Shown here: piece by piece, positions 1 to 34,054 of the stretch
Layout: the number at the start of each line of letters is the position of its first letter
Position numbering within the stretch: the first letter of the stretch is position 1
Source: Phycisphaerae bacterium
GTDB taxonomy: Bacteria > Planctomycetota > Phycisphaerae > UBA1845 > Fen-1342
Length of the DNA stretch: 64,000 nucleotides
Assembly (NCBI GenBank): GCA_963675745.2
Contig: CAXXWX010000001.1
Location: forward strand, 128,001-192,000
Direction of reading: 5' to 3'
The notes under the pieces: generated by a model
Databases searched by the model: none
The model's input: only the letters and a program-made list of their open reading frames with translations
Told to the model about the DNA's origin: nothing
Made by a program: the position numbers and the translations under genes

Positions 1-967
1 CCGGGTCGATCGTCACGCCGCCGCCATTGCTGGAGGCGGTCAGGTCAACACTGTGACCGGCGATGGGGTTACCGGCGGCATTCAGCAGCGTCACGGTGAT
101 GACGTCGGTATCCACGCCATCGGCCACGGCGGTGCCGCTGGTAGCCACTACGGTTGATGTCCCGGCATCGACCTCGTTGGCAACGAACAAAACCGTCGCC
201 GTCGCGGTGATCGCCAGATCAGGGTTGGCGGTGATATCGCGCGCCTCAAACTCGGTGCCGGCGGGATCATGTTCGGCGGTTGATGAAACGCGGAACACCA
301 CCTGCCCGGCACCATCGGAAACATCGGATTCGGTAGCGATCGACACGCCGGTGCCATTTGCGATCGCGGTCAGACTCACGCGGTGCCCGACGACCGGCGC
401 AGCCACGCCGTCCAGCAGCGTTACGGTGATCAGCTCGGTGTCGGCACCGTCGACAATCGCGCTGCCATCGGCGGCAGTGACGGTCGAGTTCGCCGCGTCG
501 GTCTCGTTTTCGTGGAACTGAATCTCCACGCGCGTCGTGATTGTCTCGTCCGGGTTCTCGGTCGTGTCCTCGAACTCGAACTCCGTGGCGCTGGGGTCTT
601 CGTGCGCGGTGTTGGATACCACCTCGAAGATCACATACCCGTTGGCGTCCGATGTCAGGTCGTTTGCAACCGACGAGACACCGCCACCGTTGGCCGTCGC
701 CGTCAGGTGCACGACGTGTCCCGCGACCGGCAGCCCGCCGGCATCGAGCAGGCGCACGACGATGACGCCGCGGTCCGTGCCGTCGGCCAGCACGCTGTCA
801 TCGGCGGCGAAGACCTGTGACACGCTCCCGTCGGTTTGCGCAAAGGCACCGACCGGCAGTGCGGCCATCAGCAGCACGATTGCCAGCAGCTTTCCCGTGC
901 CGACCCCACGCGCTGTCAGAAACGCCCGAAGATTCTGGTTTGGGAGAACGCTCTTCCCGCTCTGCAT
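1..967 (-). CDS. Secreted adhesin with tandem Big-1 (invasin/intimin-type Ig-like) repeats; C-terminal part runs off the left edge
   Basis: Not in the ORF track (no stop in the window). Hand translation from ATG 967 (GGAGG 7 nt upstream): signal peptide ...LLAIVLLMAALPVGAFA-Q, then ~110-aa repeats VLADGTDRGVIVVRLLDAGGLPVAGHVVHL, NSTVTAADGSAIVDGADTELITVTLLDGVAAPVVGHRVSL, AVADGVDTDVITVTLLNAAGNPIAGHSVDL. Confidence 0.85.
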   Translation of the reverse strand, partial: MQSGKSVLPNQNLRAFLTARGVGTGKLLAIVLLMAALPVGAFAQTDGSVSQVFAADDSVLADGTDRGVIVVRLLDAGGLPVAGHVVHLTATANGGGVSSVANDLTSDANGYVIFEVVSNTAHEDPSATEFEFEDTTENPDETITTRVEIQFHENETDAANSTVTAADGSAIVDGADTELITVTLLDGVAAPVVGHRVSLTAIANGTGVSIATESDVSDGAGQVVFRVSSTAEHDPAGTEFEARDITANPDLAITATATVLFVANEVDAGTSTVVATSGTAVADGVDTDVITVTLLNAAGNPIAGHSVDLTASSNGGGVTIDP

Positions 968-1260
968 GACGAAACCTCCGAGTTGGAGCGTGATTTGTAA
1001 GCGACTCATGTCGTTCATACTCCGCACTGGCTGGAAAACCAGCGCGATGAACTACGCGGATACGAAACCACATCACCCGCCGCAATCCATTCACGGGCGC
1101 TACTGCCAGACGTCAGTCATCCATGCGACGCCTTATCTGATTGTCCAGTCGCCTTGTGCGGTCAGCGGCCAGCGGTGCCGCATGATCGCCAAGTGCCCGG
1201 CCCGTCACATTCTAGGCGCGCCACGGCGCCCGTTCGAGTCGTCTTTGCGTGCCGCGCTGA

Positions 1261-2382
1261 TTACGGTGTCGCACCAAGGCCCGCGGGCCCGACGGTGCGC
1301 CGCCCACCCGCTCCGGTTCCCGGGATGGCGAGCTGCTGCAATCCACGAAAGCCCAGACCGCGGCTGCCGGTCTGCTCCAGTACCGCGGCGGCGGCGTTAT
1401 TCAACTGGATCGCAGTGACACCCTCGCCGACGTTGCGAAGATTCTGCACGCTGAGCGAGGCCGGCGAGAGCAGCGGCACCTGGTTAGCGGCGTCAAACGG
1501 CTGGGTTTCCGCCGAGCCACCACGCGTGCTCGACCGCGATGACCGGGAAATCTGCTGCACAGTCTGGCGGATTTCCGGATTGAAGCGGTACTCACGCAAG
1601 CGCGCGACGACGTACTTCGCCCCGGCATACTGGTCCCAGGCGATGATCTTGCGGAACAACTTGGCTTCTATGTCACTGCGCGCGGCCTGAGCCGAGGCTA
1701 CGCCGAGCACGCGTCCGGGCGACTGGTCAAAGCCGGTGTCAGCCGACCACTGGTCGAGTGAACCAAGCGTCTGCTCACCGTCGCGCGAGATGGCCAGCAA
1801 CTTGCCGGATTCGAGTTCGACCGAATCGTCGCCGACCAGGATTTCCGTCGCGGTGCCATCGCTGGTTATGAATCCCAGATCGAGCGTATCCGGACCGCGC
1901 CGCACAAACGTCCGCCCGGGCGGCGCCGCGACTTCCACGATGTTCTCGGTGTCAGGCAAGTCGTCCATGGGGATCAGCAATGTGGTCCCTATTTCAAACT
2001 CGTCGACGCCGGCGGCCTCCAGCATCAGGCTGCCATCACGCAGCTCAATGGCCACGCCACCCGTCAGATCATCGAGCGTTACGGCCAGCTCGGCCGGCCC
2101 GACCAGCACGGCGACCACCCCGGTATCGGCGAACATCATCACACGCTGGCCGGCGCTGACGCGCAGCACACCCGGGAAGACGGTGCTGCCCAGCGAAAGA
2201 AACTGAGCCTCCGCCTCGTCGATCTCCAGCGTGACGGCTTCGCGGTCGGTGGTTGACGTCACGACGAAGAGCTCTTGCGCAAACGCCGGAGCCCCGGCAA
2301 CCGCACATAGCACGACCAACACCAGCGGCCATCGCCCCACCCGAACGCCGCCGACCGCACCTGATTTGCTCTCAGTATTCAT
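1261..2382 (-). CDS. Exported protein, possible FecR-like beta-rich N-terminal domain, low-complexity C-terminus
   Basis: Signal peptide ending APAFA-Q; beta-rich segment ...VAVLVGPAELAV...IELRDGSLML; its ATG overlaps the upstream TGA at 2382. Confidence 0.55.
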   Translation of the reverse strand: MNTESKSGAVGGVRVGRWPLVLVVLCAVAGAPAFAQELFVVTSTTDREAVTLEIDEAEAQFLSLGSTVFPGVLRVSAGQRVMMFADTGVVAVLVGPAELAVTLDDLTGGVAIELRDGSLMLEAAGVDEFEIGTTLLIPMDDLPDTENIVEVAAPPGRTFVRRGPDTLDLGFITSDGTATEILVGDDSVELESGKLLAISRDGEQTLGSLDQWSADTGFDQSPGRVLGVASAQAARSDIEAKLFRKIIAWDQYAGAKYVVARLREYRFNPEIRQTVQQISRSSRSSTRGGSAETQPFDAANQVPLLSPASLSVQNLRNVGEGVTAIQLNNAAAAVLEQTGSRGLGFRGLQQLAIPGTGAGGRRTVGPAGLGATP

Positions 2383-4403
2383 CAGAAGGCCACCTCAAGT
2401 CGCACGCCGTAGATCGCACGGTCGTACTCGTAAATATCTTCGCCCAGGCGGTTCCAGATGTTCGAGTCTTCGAGAATAACCTCGACTCCGGCGCGGAGCT
2501 TCATGGCGAGCGTGCGCCAATCTTCGCGCTCGCCGGCGTCGATAATCGTGTAGGTCAGGCCAAAGTCGTAGCGCTGCCCGAAATTGGAGCGCTCCTTGCG
2601 CTCGTAGTCGAAGATGCTGGCGCTGCTGTGGTCCTCCCAACTGAATTCGCCGTCAACTTCGAAGGCAAGCCGGTAGGGCAACGGAACCTCGACACCCCAC
2701 AGAATCGAGTGGCCGCGCAGGTCGAACTCCGTGCCGCGCGTGCGTTCGTCACGGTAGGCATACCCGATATAGACATTGAGCCACTCGTCGCCGAAGAGCT
2801 CACGTTCTTTTTCGTGCGTGTCGAAGTACGGTTGCATGTAGGGAAGATTCTGGGCCTGCACGATGAAGAACGTGTGCTGAGCACCGACCGCCTGGTACGT
2901 GCCGTCACGCTCCAGCCGAAAATCACTGATGGGCTCGAGGTAGTTGCGGTCGTCAAAGGTGTAGTAAAAGTCGGTGCGCCCCCGGTCGATCGCGACGCGG
3001 CTCTCATCCTCCATCCGCCAACTCCAGGAGATCACCGGCGTCAGTCGGTGGCTGGAGATGAACGGGTCGTGGCCGAGCATGGTGTAGGAATACTCGTACT
3101 GCAAGCCAACGTACAAGTCGCGCATCGGCTGCCAATTGGCATACGCGCGACCGGAATACCGGTTCACGTCGAACTCGGTGATGTTGGGCTGCCATACGTA
3201 TGAAGCGCTGCCGCCAAACCCCAGGGTGAGGCTTTCGCCGGGGATCGGCATTTCATCGCCCGTGAGGTAGCGGCTGATGTTGAAATCGGCCAGCGTATCG
3301 AAGCGGTAGTCTTCGGACTGCTTGATGCCGAGCGGCAACGCCGTGTCGTGGCCGAGCAGGATCACATTGGTGTCAAAGGCGTTGCCGATTTGCAGACGGC
3401 CTTCGAGTTCCCAGGGGCCGAGCGGCGCGGGCACTGGCAGCGTCATGCGGTCCTGCCCGCCTCGCTGCACTTCATCAAGCTTGTTCACGACGGCTTCGGC
3501 ATTGCGCGCCAGCAGTGTCCCTTCAGCGCGCTCGATCACTTCGAGGAACAATTGACGTGCCAACTGATTGTCGCGCTGCAAAATGCTCAACAGCGCGTTG
3601 TAGTAGGTAATGACGGTCTTGAAGTCCTCGAGCTCACCCGGCGTGATGCGGTTGGCCATGCTGTCCTGTTGGGCGAGTTCAGCAGCGCGCTCCAGATCCT
3701 GCACGGCCTGTTCAACGGCGCGGGCCGCTTCGGTGCGCATCCTCAGGCGACCGTATTCGTCGGCCAGGCGATAGTGGGCAACGCCGAGATAGAAGTAGCC
3801 GAAGCGATCTTGAGCACCGTCTTCGGTCTCGCTCACGTAGCGGGTGAGAGTCTCTTCAGCCCGTTGGGCAAGCTGGAAGGGCTCATCGTCCAGCGAGGCC
3901 GGCTGGTCCTTGGCGAGTTGAGCGATGCCGAGCAAAAGCGCGGCGCGCACCATCTCGGCGGTCGGGTCCACCTGCCCAACTACGTTTTCGAAGTGCTGCT
4001 GTGCGATCTCGAATTGTGCGCGCGCGGCGGCGGCCTCATCGAGCTGAGTCGCCAGGGCGGCGGCCTCCGCCGGTTCATCACCGGCGGCTTGCGCGCTTTG
4101 GGCCTCGCCGCCGGCGGCCTGGGCCGCGGTGGCATGATCAAGACCGCGATCAAGCGCGATCAGGCCCAGGTAGTAAGCGCATGCGACGGCCCGGGGGCCC
4201 TGCGGGTCGGACGCGAGCAGGCGGTCGAAGATCTCGGCGGCACTCTCGCGGTCTTCCGCCAGATAGGCGCGGATGGCACGGTTTAGATCGATGAGTTCAG
4301 TGCTGGGGGCCGCCGCGGGCTCCTCTTGTGCGGCCGCCGGCACCGCGACGTACGCCAGGCCCAGAAGCGACCACGCCGCTGCCATGGTGAATAGCGCTTT
4401 CAT
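2382..4403 (-). CDS. TPR-containing outer-membrane beta-barrel protein (Slam/DUF560-like architecture)
   Basis: Start reassigned to ATG 4403 (signal peptide ...VPAAA-Q); TPR helices (AYYLGLIAL, YFYLGVAHY); barrel begins LEGRLQIGNAFDTNV, alternating aromatic strands, C-terminal YGVRLEVAF beta-signal. Confidence 0.75.
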   Translation of the reverse strand: MKALFTMAAAWSLLGLAYVAVPAAAQEEPAAAPSTELIDLNRAIRAYLAEDRESAAEIFDRLLASDPQGPRAVACAYYLGLIALDRGLDHATAAQAAGGEAQSAQAAGDEPAEAAALATQLDEAAAARAQFEIAQQHFENVVGQVDPTAEMVRAALLLGIAQLAKDQPASLDDEPFQLAQRAEETLTRYVSETEDGAQDRFGYFYLGVAHYRLADEYGRLRMRTEAARAVEQAVQDLERAAELAQQDSMANRITPGELEDFKTVITYYNALLSILQRDNQLARQLFLEVIERAEGTLLARNAEAVVNKLDEVQRGGQDRMTLPVPAPLGPWELEGRLQIGNAFDTNVILLGHDTALPLGIKQSEDYRFDTLADFNISRYLTGDEMPIPGESLTLGFGGSASYVWQPNITEFDVNRYSGRAYANWQPMRDLYVGLQYEYSYTMLGHDPFISSHRLTPVISWSWRMEDESRVAIDRGRTDFYYTFDDRNYLEPISDFRLERDGTYQAVGAQHTFFIVQAQNLPYMQPYFDTHEKERELFGDEWLNVYIGYAYRDERTRGTEFDLRGHSILWGVEVPLPYRLAFEVDGEFSWEDHSSASIFDYERKERSNFGQRYDFGLTYTIIDAGEREDWRTLAMKLRAGVEVILEDSNIWNRLGEDIYEYDRAIYGVRLEVAF

Positions 4404-4514: not shown

Positions 4515-4688
4515 CTAAGTCGTCGCCTGCGTCACAAGTGAGATGGTTTGACCGAGCATGTCGGCGGTTACGCGCGCAAACTCGGTGCGCAGGAAATCAA
4601 ACAACTGCTGCTGCGAGGCGCACCCCCCCAACGCCAAGCACACACCGCCGGGCACAAACCATCTGCTCATTTTCATGACAATGCGCAT
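4515..4688 (-). CDS. Small (57 aa) lipoprotein-like peptide
   Basis: MRIVMKMSRWFVPGGVCLALGGC + amphipathic helix ending QATT; GGAG RBS upstream of ATG 4688. Confidence 0.6.
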   Translation of the reverse strand: MRIVMKMSRWFVPGGVCLALGGCASQQQLFDFLRTEFARVTADMLGQTISLVTQATT

Positions 4689-4708
4689 ATTGAGCTCCAT
4701 CTCCCGCG

Positions 4709-5244: not shown

Positions 5245-8200
5245 ATGGCCGCCACGTTTCGACGTCTTTTTCTCAAACCACCGTCCGCGACCCCGGAGCA
5301 GCTCGGTGAGCTGCGCGACGGGCTGCAAGCCGCGGCGCATGCGCAGAATCGCCTGGCGGCCAAGTCACTGCACATCCTGCAATTCCAGGGAGCACTCCAG
5401 GAGGACGAGCACCACTTCTTCATCGAGCACGAGCCGGCTGAGCCACTCGTCCTGGGCGATATATTCGACCCGAAGGGCATGCGCATGGCCGGCGGGCAAC
5501 TCGTGCAGATCCTGGCGGCCCTGGCCGACGCGTTGTCCGCGGCCCACTCCGCCGGCAGCGCTCGTTCGACCGTACACGGCGGGCTGGCCCCCGGCGTGCT
5601 CGTGGCCGGCGAAGACGGAGTGGTCAAGGTCACGGACTTTGGGTTCGCCGTGGAAGCCTGCCGCGCGCTGGGTGTTGAAAGCTACCTCAACCTCGCGGTC
5701 AGCCCCTGCGAGACCTCGACCGGCGAATGGGATGTTGCCGACCCCGGCGCAACGCATCGCGACGACCGCATATGCGCGTTCATCGACCCTGACAAGCACG
5801 GGCAGGGCACGCTGAGCACATTTGAAGCCGGTTCGGACATAATCGCCGCCGGCATGCTGCTGTACGTTCTCGCCGAACATGTTCACCCCTACCTGCACTC
5901 CATACCCGGGGCCCAGCGCATCGTGGACATCTCGCGGATGTCGGCGTATGGGGTCCCACGCCCCGTGCAGCGGGAGGATCTGTGCTCGACGAAGAAGCCG
6001 GCGCTGCGCGCGTGGGTCTCGCTCGTCGAGGGCATGATCACGCGCGAGCCGGCCAAGCGTCCCTCGGCCCGGCAGGTTGCCGAAGAGATAGAGAAGCACG
6101 CCAAGGGTGTCGACAGCGAGAGCATCCAGGTTCAGCGCTGGCTCGCCCAGGTGGAGGCCATGTTCGGCGCGCGCCAGTGGGATGAGCTCGAGGCGCTGCT
6201 GCGAGATCGGCCGGCCCTGGACGACCAACCCGTAGAGGTACATGACCGGCTGACCACAATTGAGGATCAGTCCAAGCGTGAGCGGGCGGCTGATGAGCGC
6301 CGCGCGGCGGTCGAACGCGACCATCGCATGGCCAACTGGTGGTTCAAGAGCCTGGAGGAAGCCGTCAACTCGGATGAGTGGCACACGGCCTACCGACTGC
6401 TGGACGAACGCCCGCCCTTGACGCACTGGCCGGAGAGGATCGAGCAGCAAGTCGCGCCGCTGGCCAAGCGGATCAGACAGGTGCGTGCCGAGCATGAGCT
6501 GCACACCTGGCATGAATCCCTCCAGAACGCGCACGATGCGGAAGACTGGAAGACAGTGGCCACCCTGATCGGTAAGCGCCCGGCGCTGGAGCACTGGCCG
6601 CAGGACATTGCGGAGAACACCGCGCGCATCGAGGAGGCCTTCGAGGCACACCAGGCGGCCATGCGCGCCGAGCGCGAGCGCATTGCGGCCGACCACAAAG
6701 TGGCCCAGGAATGGCTTGGCCAAGCTCAGGCCCTGGCCGCCAAGGAAGAGTGGGTAAGTGCGATTGACAGTCTGGCCGAGCTGCCGCAGATCAAGCACTG
6801 GCCGGACGGCCTGCGCGAGCAGGTCGATGAGCTCGAGGATGAGTACCGCTCGCAGCTTGGCGAATCCGTCGTCGCCAATCTCGACGCCTTTACGGATAGT
6901 GTCGCGCGCCAGGCCGGTGAGATGGCGCGCGAACTCGTGCCGGATAGTTGTGGCGGCCTGCTCGCGCCTGACCGCGTGGAAACCAAGGTCGACTTCGTGA
7001 TGTGGGCGCCACCCGACACCGACGCACACGGGCGCGCGCGGGTGGTCGTGCGACTGACTCCGGAAACAGCCGGCGACAAGGCCGAACCGCTTCAGGGCCA
7101 ACTTGATTTTCGCCTGAAGGCTGTCGAGGTGCTGATCACAGGAGGCGAGGCCGAATTCCGCGCGCAGATCAGCCAGGGGCTGCCCGATCTGTTGTTTAAA
7201 CGCCAGCAGGCGGAGGTGGCGGCCCTGCAGGAGCGCCTGCGCGACAGCGTGTTTCCCAATCTCAGCGTCAGTGCTCAGCTCGACACGCCCGAGGAACAGC
7301 TCCGCGCGAAGATCGGCCTGCTGGGCAGCGACGCATCCACCGGCCAACTCGAGGTTGCCCTGCGCTGGGAGGCGGACAGCCTGACCTGGGTACCGGTCGA
7401 CGCGGCGGGTCTCGTGAGTCATGCGCTGGAAATCGCGCAGACAATCACCACGGCCGCGGTGCGCGAACGGCTCGTCACGAGTTGCGAGCCACTCGGGCCC
7501 TATCGCGACGCGCTGTTGCCGATTCTGGGTGCGGGCGCAGCCGAGAGCGGCGACAAGCTTCCCAAGACGCTGAAGTACACAGCCGAGGTCGTGATCCAGT
7601 CAGGGCCGCGCCGTCTGGCCTTGCCTTTAGCCGTCCTTGCTGTGGAGTGCACGGAGGTGGGTCGGGCGGATGTCAGCATCAACGCCGAGGAGATTTGTCG
7701 GCGGTTGGATGAGCTGCTGCTGGCGGCGCAGGAGAGCTATCGCGCCGGGTTGTTTGAACAGTCGCGGCAGTGGGGACACACCAGTACGGCCCGCGCGCGA
7801 GTTGCGGTCCAGCCCAAACGCATCACGGTCCCAACCGACGAGATCCGCTTTGATTTGCGCCCGCAGGGCGCCGACCCCGCCACAGTCACCGGGAAGTGGG
7901 ACACTGGGCGCTTCGCCTACGTTTTCTCGAACGAGGCCCAGCAGATCCTCACGAAGCTGCTGGGCGAAACGCCGGAGAACTTCGGGGATGTGCCGGTCTC
8001 ACTCGAGGCCGCCCAGAAGCGCGGCAAGAGCCGCGGCGGCTTGTTCGTTGGCGGAGCGGTCCTGGTGTTGGTGGCAGTGAGCGTGGTGGCGTACCTCGGC
8101 GTGTTCCGAACGCCAGCGCCGCCGCCGGCGCCGCCACCAGCACCAGTGGCGCCGCCGGACCCGATGAACTCGACCGTCACCACCGCGGACGGCATGGCGG

Positions 8201-9993
8201 TGGCCAACGGCGTTGATACGGAGAGGGTCACGGTCACGCTGATCGACGCGGATAACAACCCGGTGCCGAATCACAGCGTTTCGCTCGAGGTCATCGCCGG
8301 TGGCGCTGACAACGTTGACATCAGCGCCGCCTCCCGGCGGTCCGACCCCGAGACAGGCGTCGTAACGTTCGACGTCACGTCAACCGAACCCAAGTCTATC
8401 ACGGTCCGGGCCGTCACCACGACCGACAGCCTGACCCTCACCCCCGATGTCAACATTGTCTTCGAGCCCGGTGCCCCCGCCGGGCTCAGATACGTCATAC
8501 AGCCGGTGGACTCCGACATCGGCACACCGCTGGTCGTCGCCATCGAGGTTCTCGACAACGCTGATGCTGACGCCCCCGCCGCGAACCGCGTGGTTGATTT
8601 CAACGGCGCCGTGACCTTGCAACTCCTGAACCCGGAGGGCTGCGCCGGCACGCTTGCCGCAACCACGACGGTCAATGCGGTGAACGGCCTCGCCGAGTGG
8701 ACCGACGCCGAAGACCTGACCATCGATACGGTGTGCAGCGGCTATCGGCTGCGCGCCGCGGCGCTGACCTTCACGCGCGATTCGCAGCCGTTCAGCATCA
8801 CCGCCACCACGACCGACCCGGGAGCGCCGCGCGCGGCGGCCGATCTGGTTCGAGAGCTCCGAGAGCACATGGAGGCGCAGTTTGACCTGACTGGCGTCCC
8901 GAGCGCTCAGTTGGCCGACCTGCTCCGGGTGTTCATCCCCGAAGATGCGCGGGCCACGGGCGAGAAGCTGATCGCCACGCTGGTGCCGCTGGCCCAGGAC
9001 GGCACGACATTCGCCGACTACCGGGCGGCCAGCGATGGCGTGGTCGAGGTGGACATCCGCGTGCCGCTCATCGCCGGCGCGGTAGCCGAGCAACGTGGCT
9101 TCGTCATGAAACTAGAGGACGACTCGTGGCAGCCCGTGTACGGCAACGTCGATCTCGTGGGCAAGCTGACCAACAGCGCCAAACGGGCGCTGCTCGACCG
9201 CGTCGCCGAGGCGCGCGAAGAAATCGAGACACACCGCGCAAACGGTGAGCTGGCAGCGGCTTACGCTCGCTTTGCCGCGAGCGCTGCGGAGCGCGCGGCA
9301 CTGCCGGACGAGGAATCCGTCCAGGCGCTGGAGTCCCTGATGGAAGCGCTTCCGCCACGCTGGGAGGTGCTTGAAGGGCAACTGGCGGACTATCAGGCTG
9401 CGGGGGCGACTGACCCTGACACCGGATATCCGACCCAGCTTCAGAAGACGGGCGAAGATGTTCCGATGTTGCTCGTGTCGGTCCCGCCGGCCGCTCCGGT
9501 TTGGGACGAGTTGGCCCAACTTAGTGTGCCGATAGTGTCCGACCAGCCGCTTGGCACGTATGTGAATTCCACCGCCGGTGAGCGTGAATGGCTGATCTAC
9601 TACATCGACGCGCGTGAGTTGGGCGCGCTGGAGAGCTTTGGCGAGGCCCAGACGCGGGCCGCGGCGCTGGGGCGCGTGCTGCCCACGCGCAGCGAGTGGC
9701 TGCTTGCCGCACTGGTCACACGTGGTCGCCCTGAAATGGCCGAGATCGCCGGCGGACTGTACGAGTGGTGCGCCGATGACCCCGTGGCCGGCGAGCGCTG
9801 GGTGTGTGGCGGCGCCACGCTCAGTATCCAGGGTGAACAGCGTATCTATCCGCAGGCGCCCGCGGCGGCGGCCGACACGGAAACCTGGTGGACCTGGCTG
9901 ACGAACCCGCTCGTCATGCAGACGCGCGCACAGGGTGACGGCCTGACCACTGCGCGTACTGCTCTGCGCCTGTATCCGCCGTCGACACCGTGA
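5245..9993 (+). CDS. T6SS-linked membrane receptor pseudokinase: degenerate Ser/Thr kinase, helical repeats, TM, Pro linker, Big-1/Ig domains, C-terminal FGE-sulfatase-like domain
   Basis: HGGLAPGVLV in place of HRDLKPxNIL; VKVTDFG, SDIIAAG and REPAKRPSA retained; TM ~8041-8103; PAPPPAPPPAP; Big-1 at ~8161-8470; VLPTRSEWLLAA and EIAGGLYEWC echo the FGE motifs RLPTEAEWEYAA and DMAGNVWEW. Alternative start GTG 5176. Confidence 0.75.
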   Translation: MAATFRRLFLKPPSATPEQLGELRDGLQAAAHAQNRLAAKSLHILQFQGALQEDEHHFFIEHEPAEPLVLGDIFDPKGMRMAGGQLVQILAALADALSAAHSAGSARSTVHGGLAPGVLVAGEDGVVKVTDFGFAVEACRALGVESYLNLAVSPCETSTGEWDVADPGATHRDDRICAFIDPDKHGQGTLSTFEAGSDIIAAGMLLYVLAEHVHPYLHSIPGAQRIVDISRMSAYGVPRPVQREDLCSTKKPALRAWVSLVEGMITREPAKRPSARQVAEEIEKHAKGVDSESIQVQRWLAQVEAMFGARQWDELEALLRDRPALDDQPVEVHDRLTTIEDQSKRERAADERRAAVERDHRMANWWFKSLEEAVNSDEWHTAYRLLDERPPLTHWPERIEQQVAPLAKRIRQVRAEHELHTWHESLQNAHDAEDWKTVATLIGKRPALEHWPQDIAENTARIEEAFEAHQAAMRAERERIAADHKVAQEWLGQAQALAAKEEWVSAIDSLAELPQIKHWPDGLREQVDELEDEYRSQLGESVVANLDAFTDSVARQAGEMARELVPDSCGGLLAPDRVETKVDFVMWAPPDTDAHGRARVVVRLTPETAGDKAEPLQGQLDFRLKAVEVLITGGEAEFRAQISQGLPDLLFKRQQAEVAALQERLRDSVFPNLSVSAQLDTPEEQLRAKIGLLGSDASTGQLEVALRWEADSLTWVPVDAAGLVSHALEIAQTITTAAVRERLVTSCEPLGPYRDALLPILGAGAAESGDKLPKTLKYTAEVVIQSGPRRLALPLAVLAVECTEVGRADVSINAEEICRRLDELLLAAQESYRAGLFEQSRQWGHTSTARARVAVQPKRITVPTDEIRFDLRPQGADPATVTGKWDTGRFAYVFSNEAQQILTKLLGETPENFGDVPVSLEAAQKRGKSRGGLFVGGAVLVLVAVSVVAYLGVFRTPAPPPAPPPAPVAPPDPMNSTVTTADGMAVANGVDTERVTVTLIDADNNPVPNHSVSLEVIAGGADNVDISAASRRSDPETGVVTFDVTSTEPKSITVRAVTTTDSLTLTPDVNIVFEPGAPAGLRYVIQPVDSDIGTPLVVAIEVLDNADADAPAANRVVDFNGAVTLQLLNPEGCAGTLAATTTVNAVNGLAEWTDAEDLTIDTVCSGYRLRAAALTFTRDSQPFSITATTTDPGAPRAAADLVRELREHMEAQFDLTGVPSAQLADLLRVFIPEDARATGEKLIATLVPLAQDGTTFADYRAASDGVVEVDIRVPLIAGAVAEQRGFVMKLEDDSWQPVYGNVDLVGKLTNSAKRALLDRVAEAREEIETHRANGELAAAYARFAASAAERAALPDEESVQALESLMEALPPRWEVLEGQLADYQAAGATDPDTGYPTQLQKTGEDVPMLLVSVPPAAPVWDELAQLSVPIVSDQPLGTYVNSTAGEREWLIYYIDARELGALESFGEAQTRAAALGRVLPTRSEWLLAALVTRGRPEMAEIAGGLYEWCADDPVAGERWVCGGATLSIQGEQRIYPQAPAAAADTETWWTWLTNPLVMQTRAQGDGLTTARTALRLYPPSTP

Positions 9994-22773: not shown

Positions 22774-22843
22774 GTGAGACCAGGTCAACGTTTGGTACCC
22801 GCAGCGCGACTGCACTGCGGCACATGAATGGAGATAGAAAAAG

Positions 22844-24325: not shown

Positions 24326-24443
24326 ACCGGCCCTTGGGCCGAATGGGAGCATTTGCGGAGTTCTGTTTCGCCGGGCACAGCTTGTTTTTGGGAACTGTGT
24401 GTTCGCGTAGGAACGAAGGGCATTCAAACAAGGAGATGTTGTC

Positions 24444-24920
24444 ATGCCTACCCCCTGTAATCTGAAGATCGCCGAGTACCCGGGTTCGTCTGAGAAGGAA
24501 GCTCGGGAAGATACTTCCGATGTCTTCGAGATTGAGCATCACATTCACCAGCCGGTTGATATGACGACCGGCGAGGCGACCGGCGTGCGCGTGCACAGCC
24601 CGATGCGCATCGTGAAGGTCCTCGACAAGGCCAGCCCGGGCCTGCAGAAGGCACTGTGCACCGGCCAGAACCTGAAGGAAGTCATCCTGGACTTCTATCG
24701 CATCGATCCGGCCACGCGCTCGGAGTCGAAGTACTACACGATCACGTTGCGCAACGCCCGCGTGGTTGACGCGCGTCCGTACATGCCGATGAGCTTCGTG
24801 CCGGCCAACGAGTCGTATCGGCACATGGAGCAGGTCAGCTTCGTGTACGAGGAGATCGAGTGGAACTGGCTGCCGGACAGCGTCGTTGAAATGGACAAGT
24901 GGCGTTCGCCGGGCGGCTAA
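24444..24920 (+). CDS. hcp: T6SS tube protein Hcp (TssD)
   Basis: TGVRVHSPMRIVKVLDKASPGL, YYTITLRNA, HMEQVSFVYEEIEW; AAGGAG RBS. Confidence 0.95.
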   Translation: MPTPCNLKIAEYPGSSEKEAREDTSDVFEIEHHIHQPVDMTTGEATGVRVHSPMRIVKVLDKASPGLQKALCTGQNLKEVILDFYRIDPATRSESKYYTITLRNARVVDARPYMPMSFVPANESYRHMEQVSFVYEEIEWNWLPDSVVEMDKWRSPGG

Positions 24921-25256: not shown

Positions 25257-25688
25257 GTGGGCCGCGAGAAGATGTTGCTGGACCGCATCGCCAGCCTCCA
25301 GGACGACGGCGATCGCGGCCGATACGACGCGACCGTCACCGAAGACCTGGAGTCGCTGATGGAATCGGTGCGGCGGAACCTGACGCGTCTGTTGAACGCG
25401 CGCCAGGGCATGGCCGAGGGGCTGTCTGACTACGGCCTGCCGGCGATGTCAGACGTTCTCTCGGGCAGCGACAAGTATATCCGTCGGGTGCAGGACGCGG
25501 TCCGTACGACGATCGAGCGGTATGAGCCACGGTTGCGAAACGTGCGCGTGACGCACCAAACCGCCGAGGGCACGTTGCAGACGCTCGTGTTCCGCGTGGA
25601 CGCCGTGATCGTATCAGAGAGCGGCCAGCACCGCGTCTGGTACGAGACTTCGTTCGCCCCGAATGGCCGCTTTGATGTAGTAGGCTAG
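25257..25688 (+). CDS. tssE: T6SS baseplate subunit TssE (gp25-like)
   Basis: SVRRNLTRLLNARQG, DYGLP, IERYEPRLRNVRV. Confidence 0.93.
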   Translation: MGREKMLLDRIASLQDDGDRGRYDATVTEDLESLMESVRRNLTRLLNARQGMAEGLSDYGLPAMSDVLSGSDKYIRRVQDAVRTTIERYEPRLRNVRVTHQTAEGTLQTLVFRVDAVIVSESGQHRVWYETSFAPNGRFDVVG

Positions 25689-25833
25689 CCGTCCGCGGTG
25701 AGGATCGTCGCGGTTCGGATCCAATAATGGTCGAGCCTCCGGCATCTGGGAATGCCTGGCAACGCCGGTTCCCCGGGCCAGACGAGCCCGACGTCTTCAG
25801 GCCGCACCAGCGGTCGAGTCAGCGAGTTGCGCT

Positions 25834-27639
25834 GTGGATAACACGTATTACCAGGACGAGTTGCGATACTTGCGCGAGGTGGGGCCGGAGTTCGCGCGTT
25901 CGAATCCGGAGATGGCGCGCTACCTGGCTGACGCCGGCTCAGACCCAGATGTCGAACGTCTCCTGGAGGGTGTTGCGTTTCTCTGCGGTCGCATCCGCCA
26001 GAAGCTTGATGATGAGCTTCCCGAGTTCACCGCGAGTCTCATGTCGCTGCTGTGGCCGCACTATCTGCGTCCCATTCCGTCGATGACGATTCTTGAATTG
26101 CTGCCTGAAGTTGAAGGCATGCAGGCGCCGATGGCCGTCAACGCCGGCGCCGAATTCGCCAGCCGGCCAATCGACGGAACGCGCTGTCGCTATCGTTCAA
26201 CCTGGCCGGTGACACTGCGCCCCTGGGTACTGGGTAACGCGGAACTGGAGACGCTTCCGGCCGAACCCGCCCGCCTGAAACTGACCTTCCGGGCCGCCGC
26301 GAAATCGAAGCTCGAAGATCTCGAGCTCGGCTCCGTACGGCTGCACCTGGCGGGTGATCCACCAACGGCGTTCGCGCTGTACCTGCTGCTTGCCGCGCAC
26401 GTGGCATCGGTAACCATCAGCGACGGATCAAGCCGTGCCAAGCGACCCGAAGTACATTTGCCCGCGACGGCGGTAAAGGCCGCGGGGCTCGACCGCGAGG
26501 CCCCCCTGCTGCCATATCCGCCCTACGTGTTTCCCGGCTACTACCTGATCCAGGAATACTTCACGCTGAACGAGCGTTTTCTGTTCATCGACGTCGATGG
26601 GCTGGACCGCGCTGTCGATCAATTGGAGTTGAGCGACACGGTCGAGGTGACCTTCACGTTCAATCGCCGGCTCGAGTCGTATCCGCTCGTGTCACCCGAG
26701 AACATTCGGCTGCACTGCGTACCGGTCATCAATCTCTTCCCGCACAACGCGGAGCCGATTCGGCTGGACCATGAGCGCGTGCGGTATATGGTCCAGCCCG
26801 CGCGGGCTGGCATCGCCGACCGGCGACACGCGGAGGTCTATTCGGTTGATCGGGTGCTGGGCCTGGTGCGCTCTCAAGGTCTGGAATCGCACGAATTCCA
26901 GCCGTTTTATTCGTTCTCGCACGTCGGCTCGGCTGATCCGCGCGACGCCACGTACTATCAGTGCCACATCACGCCGAGCGTGATCGGCAAGGACGCGCGC
27001 TGGGGCACCGACACGTTTCTCTCGTTTGTGGTGGGAGATGAGCCGGGGGCGCTGCCCGCGGAAGAGACGATCTCGGTCGAGCTCACGTGTACGAATCGTG
27101 ACCTACCGCGTGAGTTGCGCGCCGGCGACATTTGCGAGCCGACCGACCGCTCGCCGGCCGGCGCCCGCTTTCGCAACCTGCTCAAGCCCACCCCGACGGT
27201 CAGCCCGCCGCTGGGACAGGGGCTGCACTGGCGACTGATTTCACACATGTCGCTCAACTATGTATCACTGAGCAACATCAAACACTTCAAGGAACTGCTG
27301 CGCGTTTACGATTTTGAAGCGGCACTTGATGCCCAACGCGCCGTGGCCCACCAACGCAGGCTCGATGGGATCCGCGCGTTGGACGCGGTCTATCGCGAGC
27401 GCATGGTGCGCGGCGCGCCGGTGCGCGGGCTGCTGGTCAACCTGGAATTGGACGAGGACCACTACGCCGGCGAAGGCGACGCTTTTCTGTTCGCGGCGAT
27501 TCTGGATCGTTTCATCGCGGCTTACGTAACGATCAATGCGTTTACGCAATTGGAGGTGCGTTTCACCCAGACCGGACAGATACACACGTTTCCGCCTCGC
27601 TGGGGCGAGCAATTCACGCCGATGGATGAGCGCCCATGA
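25834..27639 (+). CDS. tssF: T6SS baseplate subunit TssF
   Basis: YYQDELRYLRE, DPDVERLLEGVAFL, WPHYLRPIPSM, LHCVPVINLF, WRLISHMSLNY. Confidence 0.96.
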   Translation: MDNTYYQDELRYLREVGPEFARSNPEMARYLADAGSDPDVERLLEGVAFLCGRIRQKLDDELPEFTASLMSLLWPHYLRPIPSMTILELLPEVEGMQAPMAVNAGAEFASRPIDGTRCRYRSTWPVTLRPWVLGNAELETLPAEPARLKLTFRAAAKSKLEDLELGSVRLHLAGDPPTAFALYLLLAAHVASVTISDGSSRAKRPEVHLPATAVKAAGLDREAPLLPYPPYVFPGYYLIQEYFTLNERFLFIDVDGLDRAVDQLELSDTVEVTFTFNRRLESYPLVSPENIRLHCVPVINLFPHNAEPIRLDHERVRYMVQPARAGIADRRHAEVYSVDRVLGLVRSQGLESHEFQPFYSFSHVGSADPRDATYYQCHITPSVIGKDARWGTDTFLSFVVGDEPGALPAEETISVELTCTNRDLPRELRAGDICEPTDRSPAGARFRNLLKPTPTVSPPLGQGLHWRLISHMSLNYVSLSNIKHFKELLRVYDFEAALDAQRAVAHQRRLDGIRALDAVYRERMVRGAPVRGLLVNLELDEDHYAGEGDAFLFAAILDRFIAAYVTINAFTQLEVRFTQTGQIHTFPPRWGEQFTPMDERP

Positions 27640-28814
27640 CCGCCGCCGACACAGCCCCTACGCATCAAACCGCCGAGCACGCGCGCCGGCCGGATTTGCT
27701 TGAGCGGCTGCTAAGCACGGCGTACCGGTTCGATTTCTTCCAGGCCGTCTGGCTGCTGGAACGCTATCGTCCGGGCAGCGTGCCTGTCGGTCGCCGCGGG
27801 CCGGTCGCCGCGGAACGGCTGCGCTTCCGCCCGGGGCTGTCGATGGGTTTCCCGCCGACCGATGTCGGCAGCCTGACGGAGTTCCAGGATCCTTCGCGCC
27901 GCGATCCAAACTACCTCATCGAAGTGCTCTTCATGGGCCTGTACGGGGTTTCCACGCCGCTGCCGCTGCACTACGCCACCGACTTTCTGCGGTCCGTCGA
28001 ACGCGGCGTGCCTTCGGCGGCGGATACCGCGGACGAAGGTGGGCCGGCGCAGCGTCACGAGCGGCCGCCAAACGGCAGCCCGACGCGCGACTTCGTCGAC
28101 GTCTTTCATCATCGCGTTGTCTCACTCTTCTACCGGAGTTGGCTGAAGTATCGCTATGAGCGGATGTTCGGCCAGCCGGACCGCGATGTGATTACCAGCT
28201 ACCTGTTGAGCCTGATTGGCTGCCCGGCGGCATATGACGCGCCGACCCTGGGAGTTAATCCGATCTACCTGCTGCGCTACGCAGGCGTGTTGACGCAAAA
28301 ACCCCGCTCGGCGATCACACTCCAGGGCGTGTTGCACGACTATCTCGACCTCACGCCGGTCAAGGTCCGGCAATTCGTCGGCCAATGGGTCACGCTGTCG
28401 GAGTCGGATCTCAACCGCATTGGAGAGGCCAACTGTGTGCTCGGCGGCAACTTGACCGTCGGCGAACAGGTTTACGATCTCGGCGGCGCGTTCTGTATCA
28501 CGATTGGTCCGGTCAATTGGCAGACCTACGTGGGATTCGTGCCCGGCGGCCGGCTGTTTTCGCAAATCCGGGCGCTTACCAAGCTCTACTGCTGTGATCC
28601 ACTCACATTCAATATTGAGGTACGTTTGCTACCGAACGAGGTGCCGGAAACGCAGCTCACCTCGGACGCCACGTCCGGGCGCCTGGGCCTGACGAGTTGG
28701 GTGCGGACCGGACCTATGGGTGAGACGGCTGAGACATTCGACGCACGCGCGGACGCATCAGCGGCACCAGGGGTGTTTGTCGCCCCACCCGCAACCGCCA
28801 AGGCCGTCGCATAA
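27636..28814 (+). CDS. tssG: T6SS baseplate subunit TssG
   Basis: FDFFQAVWLLE, FMGLYGVSTPLPLHY, DVFHHRVVSLFYRSWLKY, RLGLTSW; ATGA overlap with tssF. Confidence 0.95.
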   Translation: MTAADTAPTHQTAEHARRPDLLERLLSTAYRFDFFQAVWLLERYRPGSVPVGRRGPVAAERLRFRPGLSMGFPPTDVGSLTEFQDPSRRDPNYLIEVLFMGLYGVSTPLPLHYATDFLRSVERGVPSAADTADEGGPAQRHERPPNGSPTRDFVDVFHHRVVSLFYRSWLKYRYERMFGQPDRDVITSYLLSLIGCPAAYDAPTLGVNPIYLLRYAGVLTQKPRSAITLQGVLHDYLDLTPVKVRQFVGQWVTLSESDLNRIGEANCVLGGNLTVGEQVYDLGGAFCITIGPVNWQTYVGFVPGGRLFSQIRALTKLYCCDPLTFNIEVRLLPNEVPETQLTSDATSGRLGLTSWVRTGPMGETAETFDARADASAAPGVFVAPPATAKAVA

Positions 28815-28874
28815 AGTAATGGTCGTTGAGCAATCACAGAGGGCCGCCACCGGCGGCGAAACCAAAGCGAGCGA

Positions 28875-31646
28875 GTGAAAGACATGAACGACAGCACGAC
28901 CGGCTCCACCAGCGAGAGTTTGCGCGAGTTGCTGAGGCGCTGCGACAACGCCTGCATCCAGGCGTTTCAGGGCGCCGCCAGCGTCTGCCAGACGCGCGCT
29001 CACTACGAGGTAACCCCCGACCATCTCATGCTGCGCCTGTTGGACGAGACGGTCGGCGATGTCACCGCGATCTTCAACACATTCAAGGTGGACCGCACAA
29101 GGTTGCGCCGCGCCGTGCAGCGGGCACTGGAAGTGCTGCCGACCGGCCATCGCGGGAGACCCGCGCTTTCGCCCAAACTCGTCGAGCTTTTCCAGTCGGC
29201 GGGCGTTATGTCGGACGAGTTCGGCTTTGACCAGATCCGCAGCGGGGCTCTCATACTCGCGTTTGCCCTCAATCCTGAGCATCTGGCGGCTGCGGAGCAC
29301 ACGCCCGAGCTCGAGCGCATTGACGTCGATCAGTTGCGCGATCACTTTCACGAGATTCTGACGGGAGCGCCGGCCGAGGCGCCCGGCCCCGAAGGCCGTC
29401 CGCGCGGCGCCGGAATGGGTGCCGGCGACGGCGCGCTCGCCCAGTTCACGGTCGATCTGACGGCCCGCGCCGCCGCCGGTGAGATCGACCCGGTGTTCGG
29501 CCGTGACCAGGAAATCCGCCAGATGATCGACATTCTCGGGCGCCGGCGGAAGAACAACCCGATTATCGTCGGCGAGCCCGGCACCGGAAAGACCGCGATC
29601 GTCGAGGGGCTGGCCCTGCGCATGCACCAGGGCGACGTGCCCCCCTTCCTGAAGGGCGTGCGGCTGATCTGCCTCGACCTCGGACTGCTGCAAGCCGGGG
29701 CCGGCGTCAAGGGCGAGTTTGAAAACCGCCTGAAGAACGTCATCCGCGAAATCAAAGAGAGCGAGCAGCCCATCGTCACGTTCATCGATGAAGCCCACAT
29801 GATGATCGGCGCCGGCGGGGGCGGCGGCGGTGACGCGTCAAACCTGCTCAAGCCGGCGCTGGCACGCGGCGAGCTGCGCACCATCGCGGCCACAACGTGG
29901 GCCGAGTACAAGAAATACTTCGAGAAGGATGCCGCCCTCGAACGCCGTTTCCAACTCGTACGCTGCAACGAGCCGACGATCGAAAACTCCATCGTCATGC
30001 TCCGCGGGCTGAAAGACAAGTACGAGAAACACCACAAGACCATCCTGCTGGACGAGGCGGTCACCGCGGCCGTTGCGCTTGCCAAACGCTACATCAGCGG
30101 GCGGTTCCTGCCGGATAAGGCGGTTGACCTGCTGGACACGGCGGCGGCCCGCGTCTCGGTGGGCCTGAGCACGACGCCGGCAGCGCTCGAGGACGTCGGG
30201 CGCCGGCTTCACAGCCTGGCCACCGCCATCGCCGCGCTCAATCGCGACGAGGCGGCCGGCGTCGAGATCGACAAGGACACACTCCAGGAGATGGAGACCG
30301 AGCGCACCAATCTCCTCGCCGAAAGCGAGCGGCTCGACGCCCAGTGGAGAGCCGAGCTGGAGCTGGTCAACGAAATCCGCGATCTGCGCAACAAGCTCAT
30401 GGCAAAGACCGGCGTAGGAATCGCCGGGGACGAAGAGGCCAAGGCTGAAGAGCCGGCCGAGAAACCCGCGGAAGCCGGCGAGACCGAAGCCGCCGAGGCC
30501 CCCGCACCAGCGGAGGCCGAGGCCGAGGCCGAGCCCGAAGATGCGCTCGACGAGGGCGAGTTGCGCCGCAAGATCGACGAGGGTATGGCCAAGCTCCAGG
30601 AGTTGCAGGGCGAAGATCCACTCCTGTACGCCCAGGTCGACGAGGGGGCGGTTGCGGCCGTGCTCGCCGATTGGACCGGCGTACCGGTGGGCAAGCTGGT
30701 TCGCGATGAGATTGCCGCCACGCTCGAAATGGAGGAACGTCTGCGCAGCAGAGTCGTCGGACAGGATCACGCGTTGAAGGTCGTGGCCGAAAAGCTGCGG
30801 GCCGCCAAGGCCAGCATCGGCAACCCCGAGCAACCCATGGGCGTATTCCTGCTGGTCGGGCCCAGCGGTACCGGCAAGACCGAATTGGCCCTGGCCGTGG
30901 CCGATCTGCTGTTCGGCGGCGAGCGTTTTCTCACCAGCATCAACATGTCGGAGTTCATGGAGAAACACACCGTATCGCAACTGAAGGGCTCACCGCCGGG
31001 CTATGTCGGCTATGGCGAGGGTGGCGTGCTGACCGAAGCGGTACGTCAGAGCCCCTACTCGGTCGTGCTGCTCGACGAGGTCGAGAAAGCCCACCCCGAT
31101 GTCATGAACCTTTTCTACCAGGTCTTCGACAAGGGACAGCTCGCCGACGGCGAGGGCCGTGTGATCGACTTCAAGAACACCGTCATCTTCCTGACGAGCA
31201 ATCTCGGCACCGATGTCATCCAGCAGATGTGTGAGTCCGGCGAAGACATCGATATTGCCGAGCTGAAGGAATCGGTTTACCCCCACCTGCGCGAGCACTT
31301 CAAACCCGCGCTGGTGGCGCGCATGACGGTCATTCCGTATTTGACGCTGCCGGCCGAGATCCTCGAGATGATCGCCAAGATCAAGCTGCGCAAGGTCGGC
31401 AAACGCCTGGCCGAGGCGCACGGGATAAGTTTCAACGTGGATGACGCGGTCTATACAACCATGGCCGGTCGCTGTGGTCAGGTTGATCTCGGTGCGCGGC
31501 AGATCGACCACCAGATTGACGGCGCCGTGCTGCCGGTGTTGTCACGCCGGCTGCTGGAGCAGATGGCGACCGAAGAAATGCCCACAAAGCTGACGATGGG
31601 TGTGGGTGAGGACGGCGAGTACGTGTACACGTTCGCGCAGGCGTAG
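28875..31646 (+). CDS. tssH: T6SS AAA+ ATPase ClpV (TssH)
   Basis: RAHYEVTPDH N-domain, Walker A motifs GEPGTGKT and GPSGTGKT, LLQAGAGVKGEFENRLK, LKGSPPGYVGYGEGGVLTEAVR. Confidence 0.96.
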   Translation: MKDMNDSTTGSTSESLRELLRRCDNACIQAFQGAASVCQTRAHYEVTPDHLMLRLLDETVGDVTAIFNTFKVDRTRLRRAVQRALEVLPTGHRGRPALSPKLVELFQSAGVMSDEFGFDQIRSGALILAFALNPEHLAAAEHTPELERIDVDQLRDHFHEILTGAPAEAPGPEGRPRGAGMGAGDGALAQFTVDLTARAAAGEIDPVFGRDQEIRQMIDILGRRRKNNPIIVGEPGTGKTAIVEGLALRMHQGDVPPFLKGVRLICLDLGLLQAGAGVKGEFENRLKNVIREIKESEQPIVTFIDEAHMMIGAGGGGGGDASNLLKPALARGELRTIAATTWAEYKKYFEKDAALERRFQLVRCNEPTIENSIVMLRGLKDKYEKHHKTILLDEAVTAAVALAKRYISGRFLPDKAVDLLDTAAARVSVGLSTTPAALEDVGRRLHSLATAIAALNRDEAAGVEIDKDTLQEMETERTNLLAESERLDAQWRAELELVNEIRDLRNKLMAKTGVGIAGDEEAKAEEPAEKPAEAGETEAAEAPAPAEAEAEAEPEDALDEGELRRKIDEGMAKLQELQGEDPLLYAQVDEGAVAAVLADWTGVPVGKLVRDEIAATLEMEERLRSRVVGQDHALKVVAEKLRAAKASIGNPEQPMGVFLLVGPSGTGKTELALAVADLLFGGERFLTSINMSEFMEKHTVSQLKGSPPGYVGYGEGGVLTEAVRQSPYSVVLLDEVEKAHPDVMNLFYQVFDKGQLADGEGRVIDFKNTVIFLTSNLGTDVIQQMCESGEDIDIAELKESVYPHLREHFKPALVARMTVIPYLTLPAEILEMIAKIKLRKVGKRLAEAHGISFNVDDAVYTTMAGRCGQVDLGARQIDHQIDGAVLPVLSRRLLEQMATEEMPTKLTMGVGEDGEYVYTFAQA

Positions 31647-31708: not shown

Positions 31709-31999
31709 ATGAATTCGATCGTCGAAGAAGAACTGCGGATGTACCTGGTGAATCGCCTGCACTACGACCCCTATCAGTGCGGGACGATCCTCGAGGTTAT
31801 GCGCGCGCTGGCGCGGATGGCTGGTCATGATTTTGACCACCGCTTTCGGCACGCCGGACTCGGCGCCGGCCCGGAGGCGCGCGTCGCCGCCGGACTGGTT
31901 GACTTGGCTATGGGCGGCGGTGGCTGCGAGACGTCGCCGTACACGATTCGCAAGCACATTGACGACTGGCTGCTCAAGAACCCGGCCAAGGGCCGCTAG
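31709..31999 (+). CDS. Small hypothetical protein inside the T6SS operon
   Basis: Strong AAAGGAG RBS; 96 aa; co-oriented between clpV and the sheath fusion gene. Confidence 0.7.
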   Translation: MNSIVEEELRMYLVNRLHYDPYQCGTILEVMRALARMAGHDFDHRFRHAGLGAGPEARVAAGLVDLAMGGGGCETSPYTIRKHIDDWLLKNPAKGR

Positions 32000-33976: not shown

Positions 33977-34011
33977 CGCCGAGCCGACGAAATAGAAAAC
34001 CGACACTCAAT

Positions 34012-34054
34012 CCGAAGCACGCGCGCTCAACAAGTCCGCGTGCTTCGGCTTTTT
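34012..34054 (+). terminator. Rho-independent terminator closing the T6SS operon
   Basis: Perfect 12-bp stem CCGAAGCACGCG/CGCGTGCTTCGG, 13-nt loop, followed by CTTTTT. Confidence 0.8.

Follow-up and report, generated by a model that had tools for sequence, protein, structure and literature searches.

A type VI secretion system of Phycisphaerae with a candidate regulatory module and a possible needle-less offshoot

The DNA described here, a window of 64,000 nucleotides from a Phycisphaerae bacterium (G000:C1:128001-192000, G000 being the source genome, 91% complete, and C1 the contig), carries the core genes of a type VI secretion system (T6SS), and back-to-back with them lies an operon for envelope proteins. 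To judge from the sequence, the locus represents a T6SS variant with a candidate new regulatory module, built around a membrane pseudokinase and the envelope operon, and with a possible needle-less offshoot in relatives; no such system was found in the literature searched. An initial annotation of the same DNA had reported a near-complete T6SS beside an operon for lipobox peptides, a TPR barrel, a FecR-like protein and a Big-1 adhesin, in a lineage that is probably Phycisphaerae. Core, operon and domains were all confirmed, with vgrG and PAAR on contig C19, and the source names of the homologues agree with the lineage. The features are listed below; apart from the 96-residue open reading frame, the genes from tssK onwards were named by Pfam and NCBIfam.

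1..967, minus strand: surface adhesin, 2,087 residues; its 5′ end lies in the window and the gene continues to G000:C1:122764
1261..2382, minus strand: FecR-fold periplasmic or secreted protein with a signal peptide and a conserved low-complexity C-terminal tail
2382..4403 (reading frame opens at 4496), minus strand: TPR region and outer-membrane barrel of about 14 strands, distantly Slam/DUF560-like
4515..4688, minus strand: mini-lipoprotein 2, 57 residues, a lipobox and then one amphipathic helix
4709..4909, minus strand: mini-lipoprotein 1, 66 residues, with a lipobox
5245..9993, plus strand: membrane pseudokinase, 1,605 residues, first gene on the T6SS side
5245-6180, plus strand: its predicted dead kinase domain
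about 8032-8100, plus strand: its transmembrane (TM) helix, after a long cytoplasmic region
8173-8811, plus strand: its adhesin-derived Big-1/Ig insert
within 9001-9990, plus strand: its FGE-sulfatase (TagR)-like domain, predicted near the C-terminus
10296..11477, plus strand: protein with a coiled coil and a conserved helical C-terminal domain, in the gene position of fha
11474..12148, plus strand: TssJ-like lipoprotein, called by position and lipobox, with no profile match
12239..13660, plus strand: tssK
13657..14463, plus strand: tssL (DotU)
14512..19311, plus strand: tssM (IcmF), 1,599 residues, Walker A motif present
19366..20379, plus strand: tagF, without a PppA domain
20643..22208, plus strand: tssA (ImpA_N and VasJ; TIGR03362)
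22243..24920, plus strand: tssB, tssC and hcp
25257..31646, plus strand: tssE, tssF, tssG and clpV
31709..31999, plus strand: 96-residue open reading frame, kept just 5′ of the TssB-TssC fusion in 3 relatives at 50-65% identity
32156..33976, plus strand: divergent TssB-TssC fusion

TssA, B, C, D (Hcp), E, F, G, H, K, L and M, the proteins required for the core of T6SS subtype i, are all present according to Pfam and NCBIfam. The window holds tssK, L, M, A, B, C, hcp, E, F and G; clpV, which encodes an AAA+ ATPase of the ClpB/ClpV type, was assigned by its AAA+ and Clp_N domains together with its position. The tagF match of the window is weak (PF09867, E 0.003; TIGR03373, E 0.002), while its homologues reach 3e-9. 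The J-like protein found no match to TssJ in Pfam, PDB or hhalign comparisons; its lipobox cysteine is invariant in 20/20 aligned homologues and its gene lies directly 5′ of tssK. Set against subtype i as defined in PMC4793230, the system shares the core genes genome-wide (TssJ by position only) and a vgrG-PAAR-effector cassette, and differs in its extra TssB-TssC fusion, its divergent J and an order-specific accessory module. In a ranking against eight solved sheath sequences TssC scored 461 bits on the Myxococcus sheath (5URW), 449 on VipB and 338 on 5N8N. By these scores the sheath appears nearer to those of Myxococcus and Vibrio than to that of the H1-T6SS, and descent from the latter, as implied by the initial annotation, is not supported. 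No plasmid record among the matches listed is more than 46.6% identical to TssC.

The pseudokinase of the window reads HGGLAPG where HRD is expected, and the catalytic aspartate is absent from 44/44 aligned homologues, in which HRD is replaced by HGG (39), HGA (4) or HGC (1). The kinase domain is thus predicted to be catalytically dead, as the initial annotation had proposed. The FGE-sulfatase family was matched by 5 of 17 members, with a best E-value of 4.6e-4 and the window copy itself below threshold, and the same annotation was already attached to 3/38 homologues; by these matches the C-terminus is FGE-sulfatase (TagR)-like. Between the TM helix and this domain, most of the 26 pseudokinases tested have a Pro-rich linker. 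Big-1 occurs there in G000 alone, as one Big_1 match within a 213-residue segment 60% identical to the adhesin of the same genome; the linkers of G018 and G066 carry another Ig type, and by eye those of G023, G024 and G069 carry Cys-rich repeats, of a kind similar to repeats in the G023 and G024 adhesins. The segment is read as an exchangeable stalk. The Big-1 repeat common to kinase and adhesin had been taken for a design feature, a view that does not survive its confinement to G000. A lock-and-key code of matching repeats was likewise rejected, as only three of the 26 (G000, G018 and G066) match any adhesin by BLAST. Complex prediction of the barrel TPR, the FecR-like protein and the FGE region scored 0.00.

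The barrel model comprises the TPR half and 13 strands, the last 31 residues being absent from it, and its best folds are CymA (Z 18.8) and OmpG (Z 17.5), both 14-stranded barrels. Among the Foldseek matches of the whole model most are TPR proteins and none is a Slam, and the window protein has no Pfam match to PF04575. SlipAM was matched by just 2 of 27 scanned distant profile matches of the barrel (P0134 and P0126; 6e-5 and 0.005), and the barrel is therefore called Slam-like, not a shown Slam. It resembles Slam/type 11 secretion (T11SS; PF04575) in joining TPRs to a 14-strand barrel and in having lipoproteins as neighbours; it differs in its missing direct Pfam match, its long TPR region, and neighbours that are helical mini-lipoproteins and a FecR fold instead of TbpB-like cargo. 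The gene for mini-lipoprotein 2 lies directly 5′ of the barrel gene in relatives where it was found. The FecR fold was recognized by Foldseek (4M0N, E 3.5e-5; PupR 6OVK, E 4e-4) and by Pfam FecR in two homologues from family f91, in at least one of them above the cut-off. The protein shares this fold with FecR/PupR cell-surface signalling, but only a signal peptide precedes it, with no cytoplasmic anti-sigma domain, and domain scans found no ECF sigma or TonB-dependent receptor gene within the operon.

The adhesin has a signal peptide, 10 Big_1 stretches, further Ig-like domains, TSP3 Ca-binding repeats and a C-terminal sorting tail of Cys, TM helix and Arg. Big_1 was found in just 1/9 relatives' adhesins scanned, and the rest carry different Ig-type domains. 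The N-terminal half is highly variable among relatives: in the window's family it is strongly different in 2/4 same-genus pairs, the remainder being 74-86% identical, whereas in the other 2/4 pairs the N-terminus is 86-89% identical. A pattern search found the Cys-TM-Arg tail on eight proteins of G000 including the adhesin, and no NCBIfam CTERM model matched the adhesin tail; contigs C4, C5, C6, C7, C16, C17, C19 and C26 are among those that bear the tag. The adhesin thus has a sorting tail of its own, like at least seven other G000 proteins, and the earlier description of an "adhesin export module" is not supported. Such a genome-wide tail may be a Phycisphaerae sorting signal. It is like MYXO-CTERM-type tags and TraA/TraB in placing Cys, a TM helix and an Arg-rich stretch on many surface proteins; the difference lies in the missing CTERM model. 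For Cys tags of the MYXO-CTERM type, a route by sortase and the type II secretion system is described in Myxococcus (PMC11980579), and the main text of a paper on sorting tags mentions neither Planctomyc nor Phycisphaer (10.1101/2023.06.07.544157).

Several neighbours of this operon deserve mention. A conserved secreted protein of 665 residues, of no family, is encoded directly after the adhesin (G000:C1:120700-122697; L002:10701-12698) and holds the same place in 10 fetched relatives; genes of similar size come after the FecR-like gene in f91. Downstream of the module lie an ABC ATPase and an FtsX/MacB permease (G000:C1:117024-120579; L002:7025-10580), of the family type of TagT/TagS; the pair stands there in G000 only, and not at that place in G048 and G049. 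In a second module type (L064-L073, L103, L105, L109, L112) the gene after the FecR-like one encodes a large Ig/PKD protein with a lipobox-like start, and this protein and a separate TSP3/Cys-CTERM protein of about 500 residues stand in for the single adhesin. Several modules of this type then run into PEP-CTERM-like arrays.

Firing of the Pseudomonas aeruginosa H1-T6SS is governed by TagQRST, PpkA, Fha1, PppA and TagF. The coiled-coil gene of the window occupies the position that fha has in several T6SS clusters. When compared with Fha-C by hhalign, window-type coiled-coil proteins gave 0.1-0.4%, which is background, and three divergent ones gave a probability of 11% (score 26 vs 19 for the best control). 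The protein had one unnamed Atlas match at 0.78, and a related-locus search with it returned one locus. T6SS_FHA_C (PF20232) has no match in G000 and is present in 12/201 genomes of the phylum; the seven FHA proteins of G000 are ABC, GAF or phosphatase-type fusions or unassigned, and none is of the T6SS type. PP2C/PppA (PF13672) has no match in G000, the only genome searched for it. The absence of a canonical Fha/PppA set thus stood up in G000, and the TagR-like domain on the pseudokinase adds to the case for a remodelled pathway. G000 encodes many ordinary Ser/Thr kinases, and phosphorylation in trans is therefore possible.

The likeness to the H1 pathway lies in a membrane protein of kinase fold, an FGE-sulfatase domain as in TagR (residues 127-359 of which are described as FGE-sulfatase-like; PMC13713981), TagF, and a gene that precedes tssJKLM where fha would stand. 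The differences are that here the predicted dead kinase is fused to the FGE domain, that FHA and PP2C domains are missing, that an outer-membrane barrel, a FecR fold and an adhesin stand in place of TagQ, and that the sheath is not H1-like. TagF is reported to repress through Fha independently of phosphorylation (PMC5995506). An FGE domain in Agrobacterium PpkA was not confirmed in PMC3953482, where neither sulfatase nor DUF323 is mentioned, and was not used.

Co-occurrence was counted in 161 genomes of the order, 50 of them tssF-positive. The pseudokinase is present in 53 genomes, among them 49 of the 50 with tssF; it occurs without tssF in 4, and 107 have neither. The barrel, counted in the 54 genomes with E below 1e-60 (23 genomes with weaker matches were dropped), accompanies tssF in 45 genomes and stands alone in 9, with tssF alone in 5 and neither in 102. 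Strong matches to the coiled-coil protein were found in 32 genomes, 31 of them tssF-positive, after two weak matches were dropped; in most of a second TssK clade it was not found. In the window's family of 72 genomes, tssK occurs in 45 and the barrel in 41, both together in 39. The association holds even where the parts all lie dispersed along a single chromosome (G023, G071, G015), and T6SSs outside the order occur in the class sample without this barrel, the barrel search there having had a stricter first look. By these searches the gene set is conserved across the order. G013 was rejected as a module without T6SS, since its pseudokinase gene is cut by the end of a contig and tssF is found at the start of another.

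Physical linkage was followed through tssK flanks, fetched for 40/44 tssK-positive relatives in the window's family. Linkage of module and T6SS recurs in five families in several gene orders, and is broken in many relatives. The window layout is also found in G043, G022, G021, G048, G049, G037, G018, G041 (cut at a contig end) and L005, and in family f88 (G373, G596). In f89 and f107 the barrel operon begins with the pseudokinase gene and is divergent from the coiled-coil gene (G387, G318, G580, G583) or converges on the T6SS (G513); in G069 and G052 the adhesin precedes the coiled-coil gene and the barrel follows tagF, and in G023 and G024 the adhesin alone is kept at that locus. G538 keeps the layout, module and pseudokinase included, beside a T6SS only about 25-44% identical to that of the window; between its pseudokinase and coiled-coil gene lies a 752-residue gene of no family (L147:427-2685). 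The pseudokinase stands beside the coiled-coil gene in G420 and G458, where the barrel is elsewhere, beside the barrel operon in G067, G068, G066, G027 and G576, and between both in many genomes. It thus neighbours one, the other or both, as would be expected of a bridge. Genes for a MarR-type regulator and a phosphoribosyltransferase often lie divergent from tssJ in the second TssK clade, and nothing T6SS-like comes after tagF in the five loci followed downstream; needle-less systems in this clade were considered and rejected, TssC and TssF being found elsewhere in the genomes (47/72 each). In G377 (L118), a T6SS of another family has a possible Fha-C gene and an open reading frame of more than 3,000 residues downstream of tssM.

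Family f91 departs furthest from this pattern. Four f91 genomes, of four genera and 93-94% complete, have the barrel; tssM is found in 4/4 and TssF in 0/5, and TssC, VgrG, Hcp, TssK and TssG were found in 0/4, with positive controls from E. coli (and, for TssG, also G538). G518 (G518:C21; L160:14064-19901, L158:1-11406) has the pseudokinase, the coiled-coil protein's domain, the J-like gene, tssL, tssM (apparently in two frames) and tagF, and its tssL-tssM-tagF cluster converges on the peptide-barrel-FecR operon. G509 (G509:C49; L162, L167, L157) has the pseudokinase, the same domain, tssL, tssM and tagF, with the barrel about 25 kb away. The short f91 coiled-coil protein is homologous to the domain of the window protein (hhalign 72%, score 37 vs 16 for the best control). 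G514 has a pseudokinase-type fragment, and the best match in G345 is an ordinary HRD kinase. Assembly gaps are possible, but the absence of six separate genes from four genomes is hard to explain in that way. Since f91 keeps the membrane complex and the module without detected needle genes, the partner of the module is probably the T6SS membrane complex. The f91 loci suggest a cell-contact device not described before. They recall DotU/IcmF, which are reported to place the Legionella Dot/Icm system, a type IVB secretion system (10.1101/315721), in that TssL/TssM homologues are kept without a T6SS needle; they differ in that TagF, pseudokinase and coiled-coil protein are kept as well and the partner is a single barrel operon.

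From the observed gene content, folds, loss of the catalytic residue, co-inheritance, and retention with tssL-tssM-tagF where contractile parts were not detected, we propose that the module may serve the T6SS membrane complex as an accessory system throughout the order, acting as a phosphorylation-independent contact relay that positions TssLM. We give this reading about an even chance (roughly 0.5), and we infer each of its physical steps. The adhesin with its variable tip would hold a neighbouring cell. The barrel, the two mini-lipoproteins and the FecR-fold protein would mark or report the contact at the outer membrane, and the TagR-like FGE domain of the pseudokinase, carried on its Pro-rich or Ig stalk, would pick it up in the periplasm. 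The dead kinase would serve as a clustering scaffold and, with the coiled-coil protein in the Fha position and TagF as brake, would nucleate TssJLM at the contact site without phosphorylation. Clustering would thus replace phosphate as the signal from surface contact to TssLM assembly. The relay would aim an antibacterial T6SS in G000, and in f91 it would act for a membrane complex that has no needle. It may even be, though we hold this only tentatively, that a contact machine in its own right spans the envelope, composed of TssL-TssM-TagF, the TagR-fused pseudokinase, the coiled-coil protein, the Slam-like barrel with both mini-lipoproteins, and the FecR-fold protein. Such a machine would aim a T6SS in most members and work without a needle in f91, where the T6SS membrane complex would have become a device for adhesion, signalling or export.

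Several observations weigh against the proposed relay. G002, G029 and G051, which are 93-96% complete, have tssF and pseudokinase with no barrel match even to a wide profile, and G001 and G510 carry the pseudokinase without tssF; moreover, related genomes are not independent and the counts therefore overstate the association. The TssK and barrel trees are incongruent, f89 combining window-type TssK with the other barrel type (the barrel tree is a quick version). The likeness of the coiled-coil protein to Fha-C is at background for the window type and weak for the divergent type (11%). In the second TssK clade (L024-L045, L128-L137) the T6SS is scattered in separate loci over the chromosome, and 0/22 fetched loci have module genes in the flank or a coiled-coil gene 5′ of tssJ. 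Unrelated genes precede the coiled-coil gene in G067, G068, G042 and G044. A comparison of linkage across related genomes had been set beforehand, with separation of module and T6SS as the outcome that would count against their coupling; separation was found in part, because the two lie apart in those four genomes and at all 22 second-clade tssK loci, and most unlinked genomes still carry both. The coupling of adhesin and T6SS claimed initially is upheld by co-occurrence across the order and linkage in five families, and qualified by the many relatives in which they are unlinked.

The main rival, which we consider unlikely, is structural co-option: TssL-TssM-TagF, the coiled-coil protein and the pseudokinase would scaffold or position a barrel complex that exports or displays the Ig protein, and the T6SS needle would be one client of a shared envelope hub. 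The f91 loci, with tssL, tssM and tagF kept along with a barrel operon and no needle gene detected, suit this well, as do the distant SlipAM link of the barrel, the second-type Ig/PKD protein, whose N-terminal lipobox-like motif would make it a natural Slam cargo, and the DotU/IcmF precedent (10.1101/315721). However, the window-type adhesin ends in a Cys-CTERM tail common to other proteins, and such tags are described as using sortase and type II secretion in Myxococcus (PMC11980579); the genes after the FecR-like one in G518, G509 and G345 do not match the adhesin C-terminal profile; and the 8-stranded C-terminal barrel in which T11SS lipoprotein cargo ends (PMC8406197) is not among the Pfam matches of the neighbours, no aimed search for it having been made.

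Rather improbable, in our estimate, is a tether alone, in which the adhesin raises contact and is co-regulated with the T6SS, no signal passes inwards, and the pseudokinase contributes to T6SS assembly in some other, structural way. TasL of Vibrio fischeri is an adhesin that raises cell-cell contact for T6SS2 in this manner (PMC9040878), and the pseudokinase tracks tssF (49/50) more tightly than the barrel does (45/50). Such a tether leaves unexplained both the FecR-fold protein and the genomes in which the pseudokinase is still next to the barrel operon although the T6SS now lies elsewhere (G067, G068, G066, G027). Other contact-site factors, such as TslA, are known (PMC13584744). TasL and TslA/TagM1 (Acinetobacter, Burkholderia) share with the present case a large T6SS-linked surface adhesin, or a periplasmic factor placing the membrane complex at contacts; the module here differs in being a multi-gene, envelope-spanning set with a pseudokinase, and the likeness is one of role alone.

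Kin recognition had been put forward in the initial annotation. In a scheme modelled on TraA/TraB, the variable adhesin tips of two cells would bind one another, and this homotypic contact would tell self from non-self and gate firing or mini-lipoprotein exchange. TraB is the barrel partner of TraA. The two same-genus pairs with strongly different N-termini are in keeping with this scheme, and so are the Cys-CTERM tail, the TSP3 repeats and the partner barrel, as in TraA/B (for TraA, PMC11980579); yet the other two pairs are nearly alike there, domain scans gave no TraA or TraB family match, and the tip variation fits prey or surface specificity equally well. We regard kin sensing specifically as very improbable. 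Least probable of all is mere hitch-hiking: envelope genes with no functional tie would have been gained and lost jointly as parts of an ancestral island. Tree incongruence, frequent unlinking and a barrel without T6SS in G011 and G581 would allow this, but it is hard to square with co-occurrence that persists in scattered genomes and with adjacency rebuilt in several orders and beside a distant T6SS (G538).

Outside the module, the T6SS locus has further peculiarities. The sole vgrG of G000 and the PAAR gene near it are found on contig C19, in an orphan cassette (G000:C19:328888-335864) of vgrG, a peptidoglycan-binding protein, an acidic 274-residue reading frame, a basic 715-residue reading frame and PAAR. 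The basic protein belongs to no family and is a candidate effector; neither frame has a homologue in the fetched relatives' loci. In relatives vgrG comes after clpV and, where the locus extends that far, the TssB-TssC fusion after effector genes; a vgrG-type cassette lies between clpV and the fusion in G373, G043, G037, G067 and G513, and the cassette has therefore moved in G000. A second, stand-alone PAAR-domain gene lies at G000:C3:4720-5361 without T6SS neighbours. Most T6SS-positive genomes of the window's family have a second, weaker VipB match, and the fusion is retained in most of them even when scattered away from tssB and tssC; a literature search on natural TssB-TssC fusions returned nothing relevant. 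A promoter and terminator scan gave matches no more frequent than by chance.

Target sensing by T6SSs is known from a few proteobacterial models. In Planctomycetota, T6SS genes have been noted at survey level (10.64898/2026.06.16.732483), and our literature search, outside which lay many subscription papers and supplements, found no planctomycete T6SS mechanism, T6SS pseudokinase or module of this kind. The genomes studied are probably from uncultured organisms. M. xanthus is reported to have unidentified extracellular antennae of about 60 nm at its T6SS (10.1101/108233); adhesins like the present one are candidates for such structures, and a chain of 10-15 Ig domains would, by our estimate, be of the same order of length. 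The needle-less f91 loci suggest that the membrane complex can do work independent of a needle, as DotU/IcmF do in Legionella. If the proposed relay is true, a whole order would have an alternative means of target sensing, in which a dead kinase fused to a TagR-like domain is inherited together with a surface adhesin kit.

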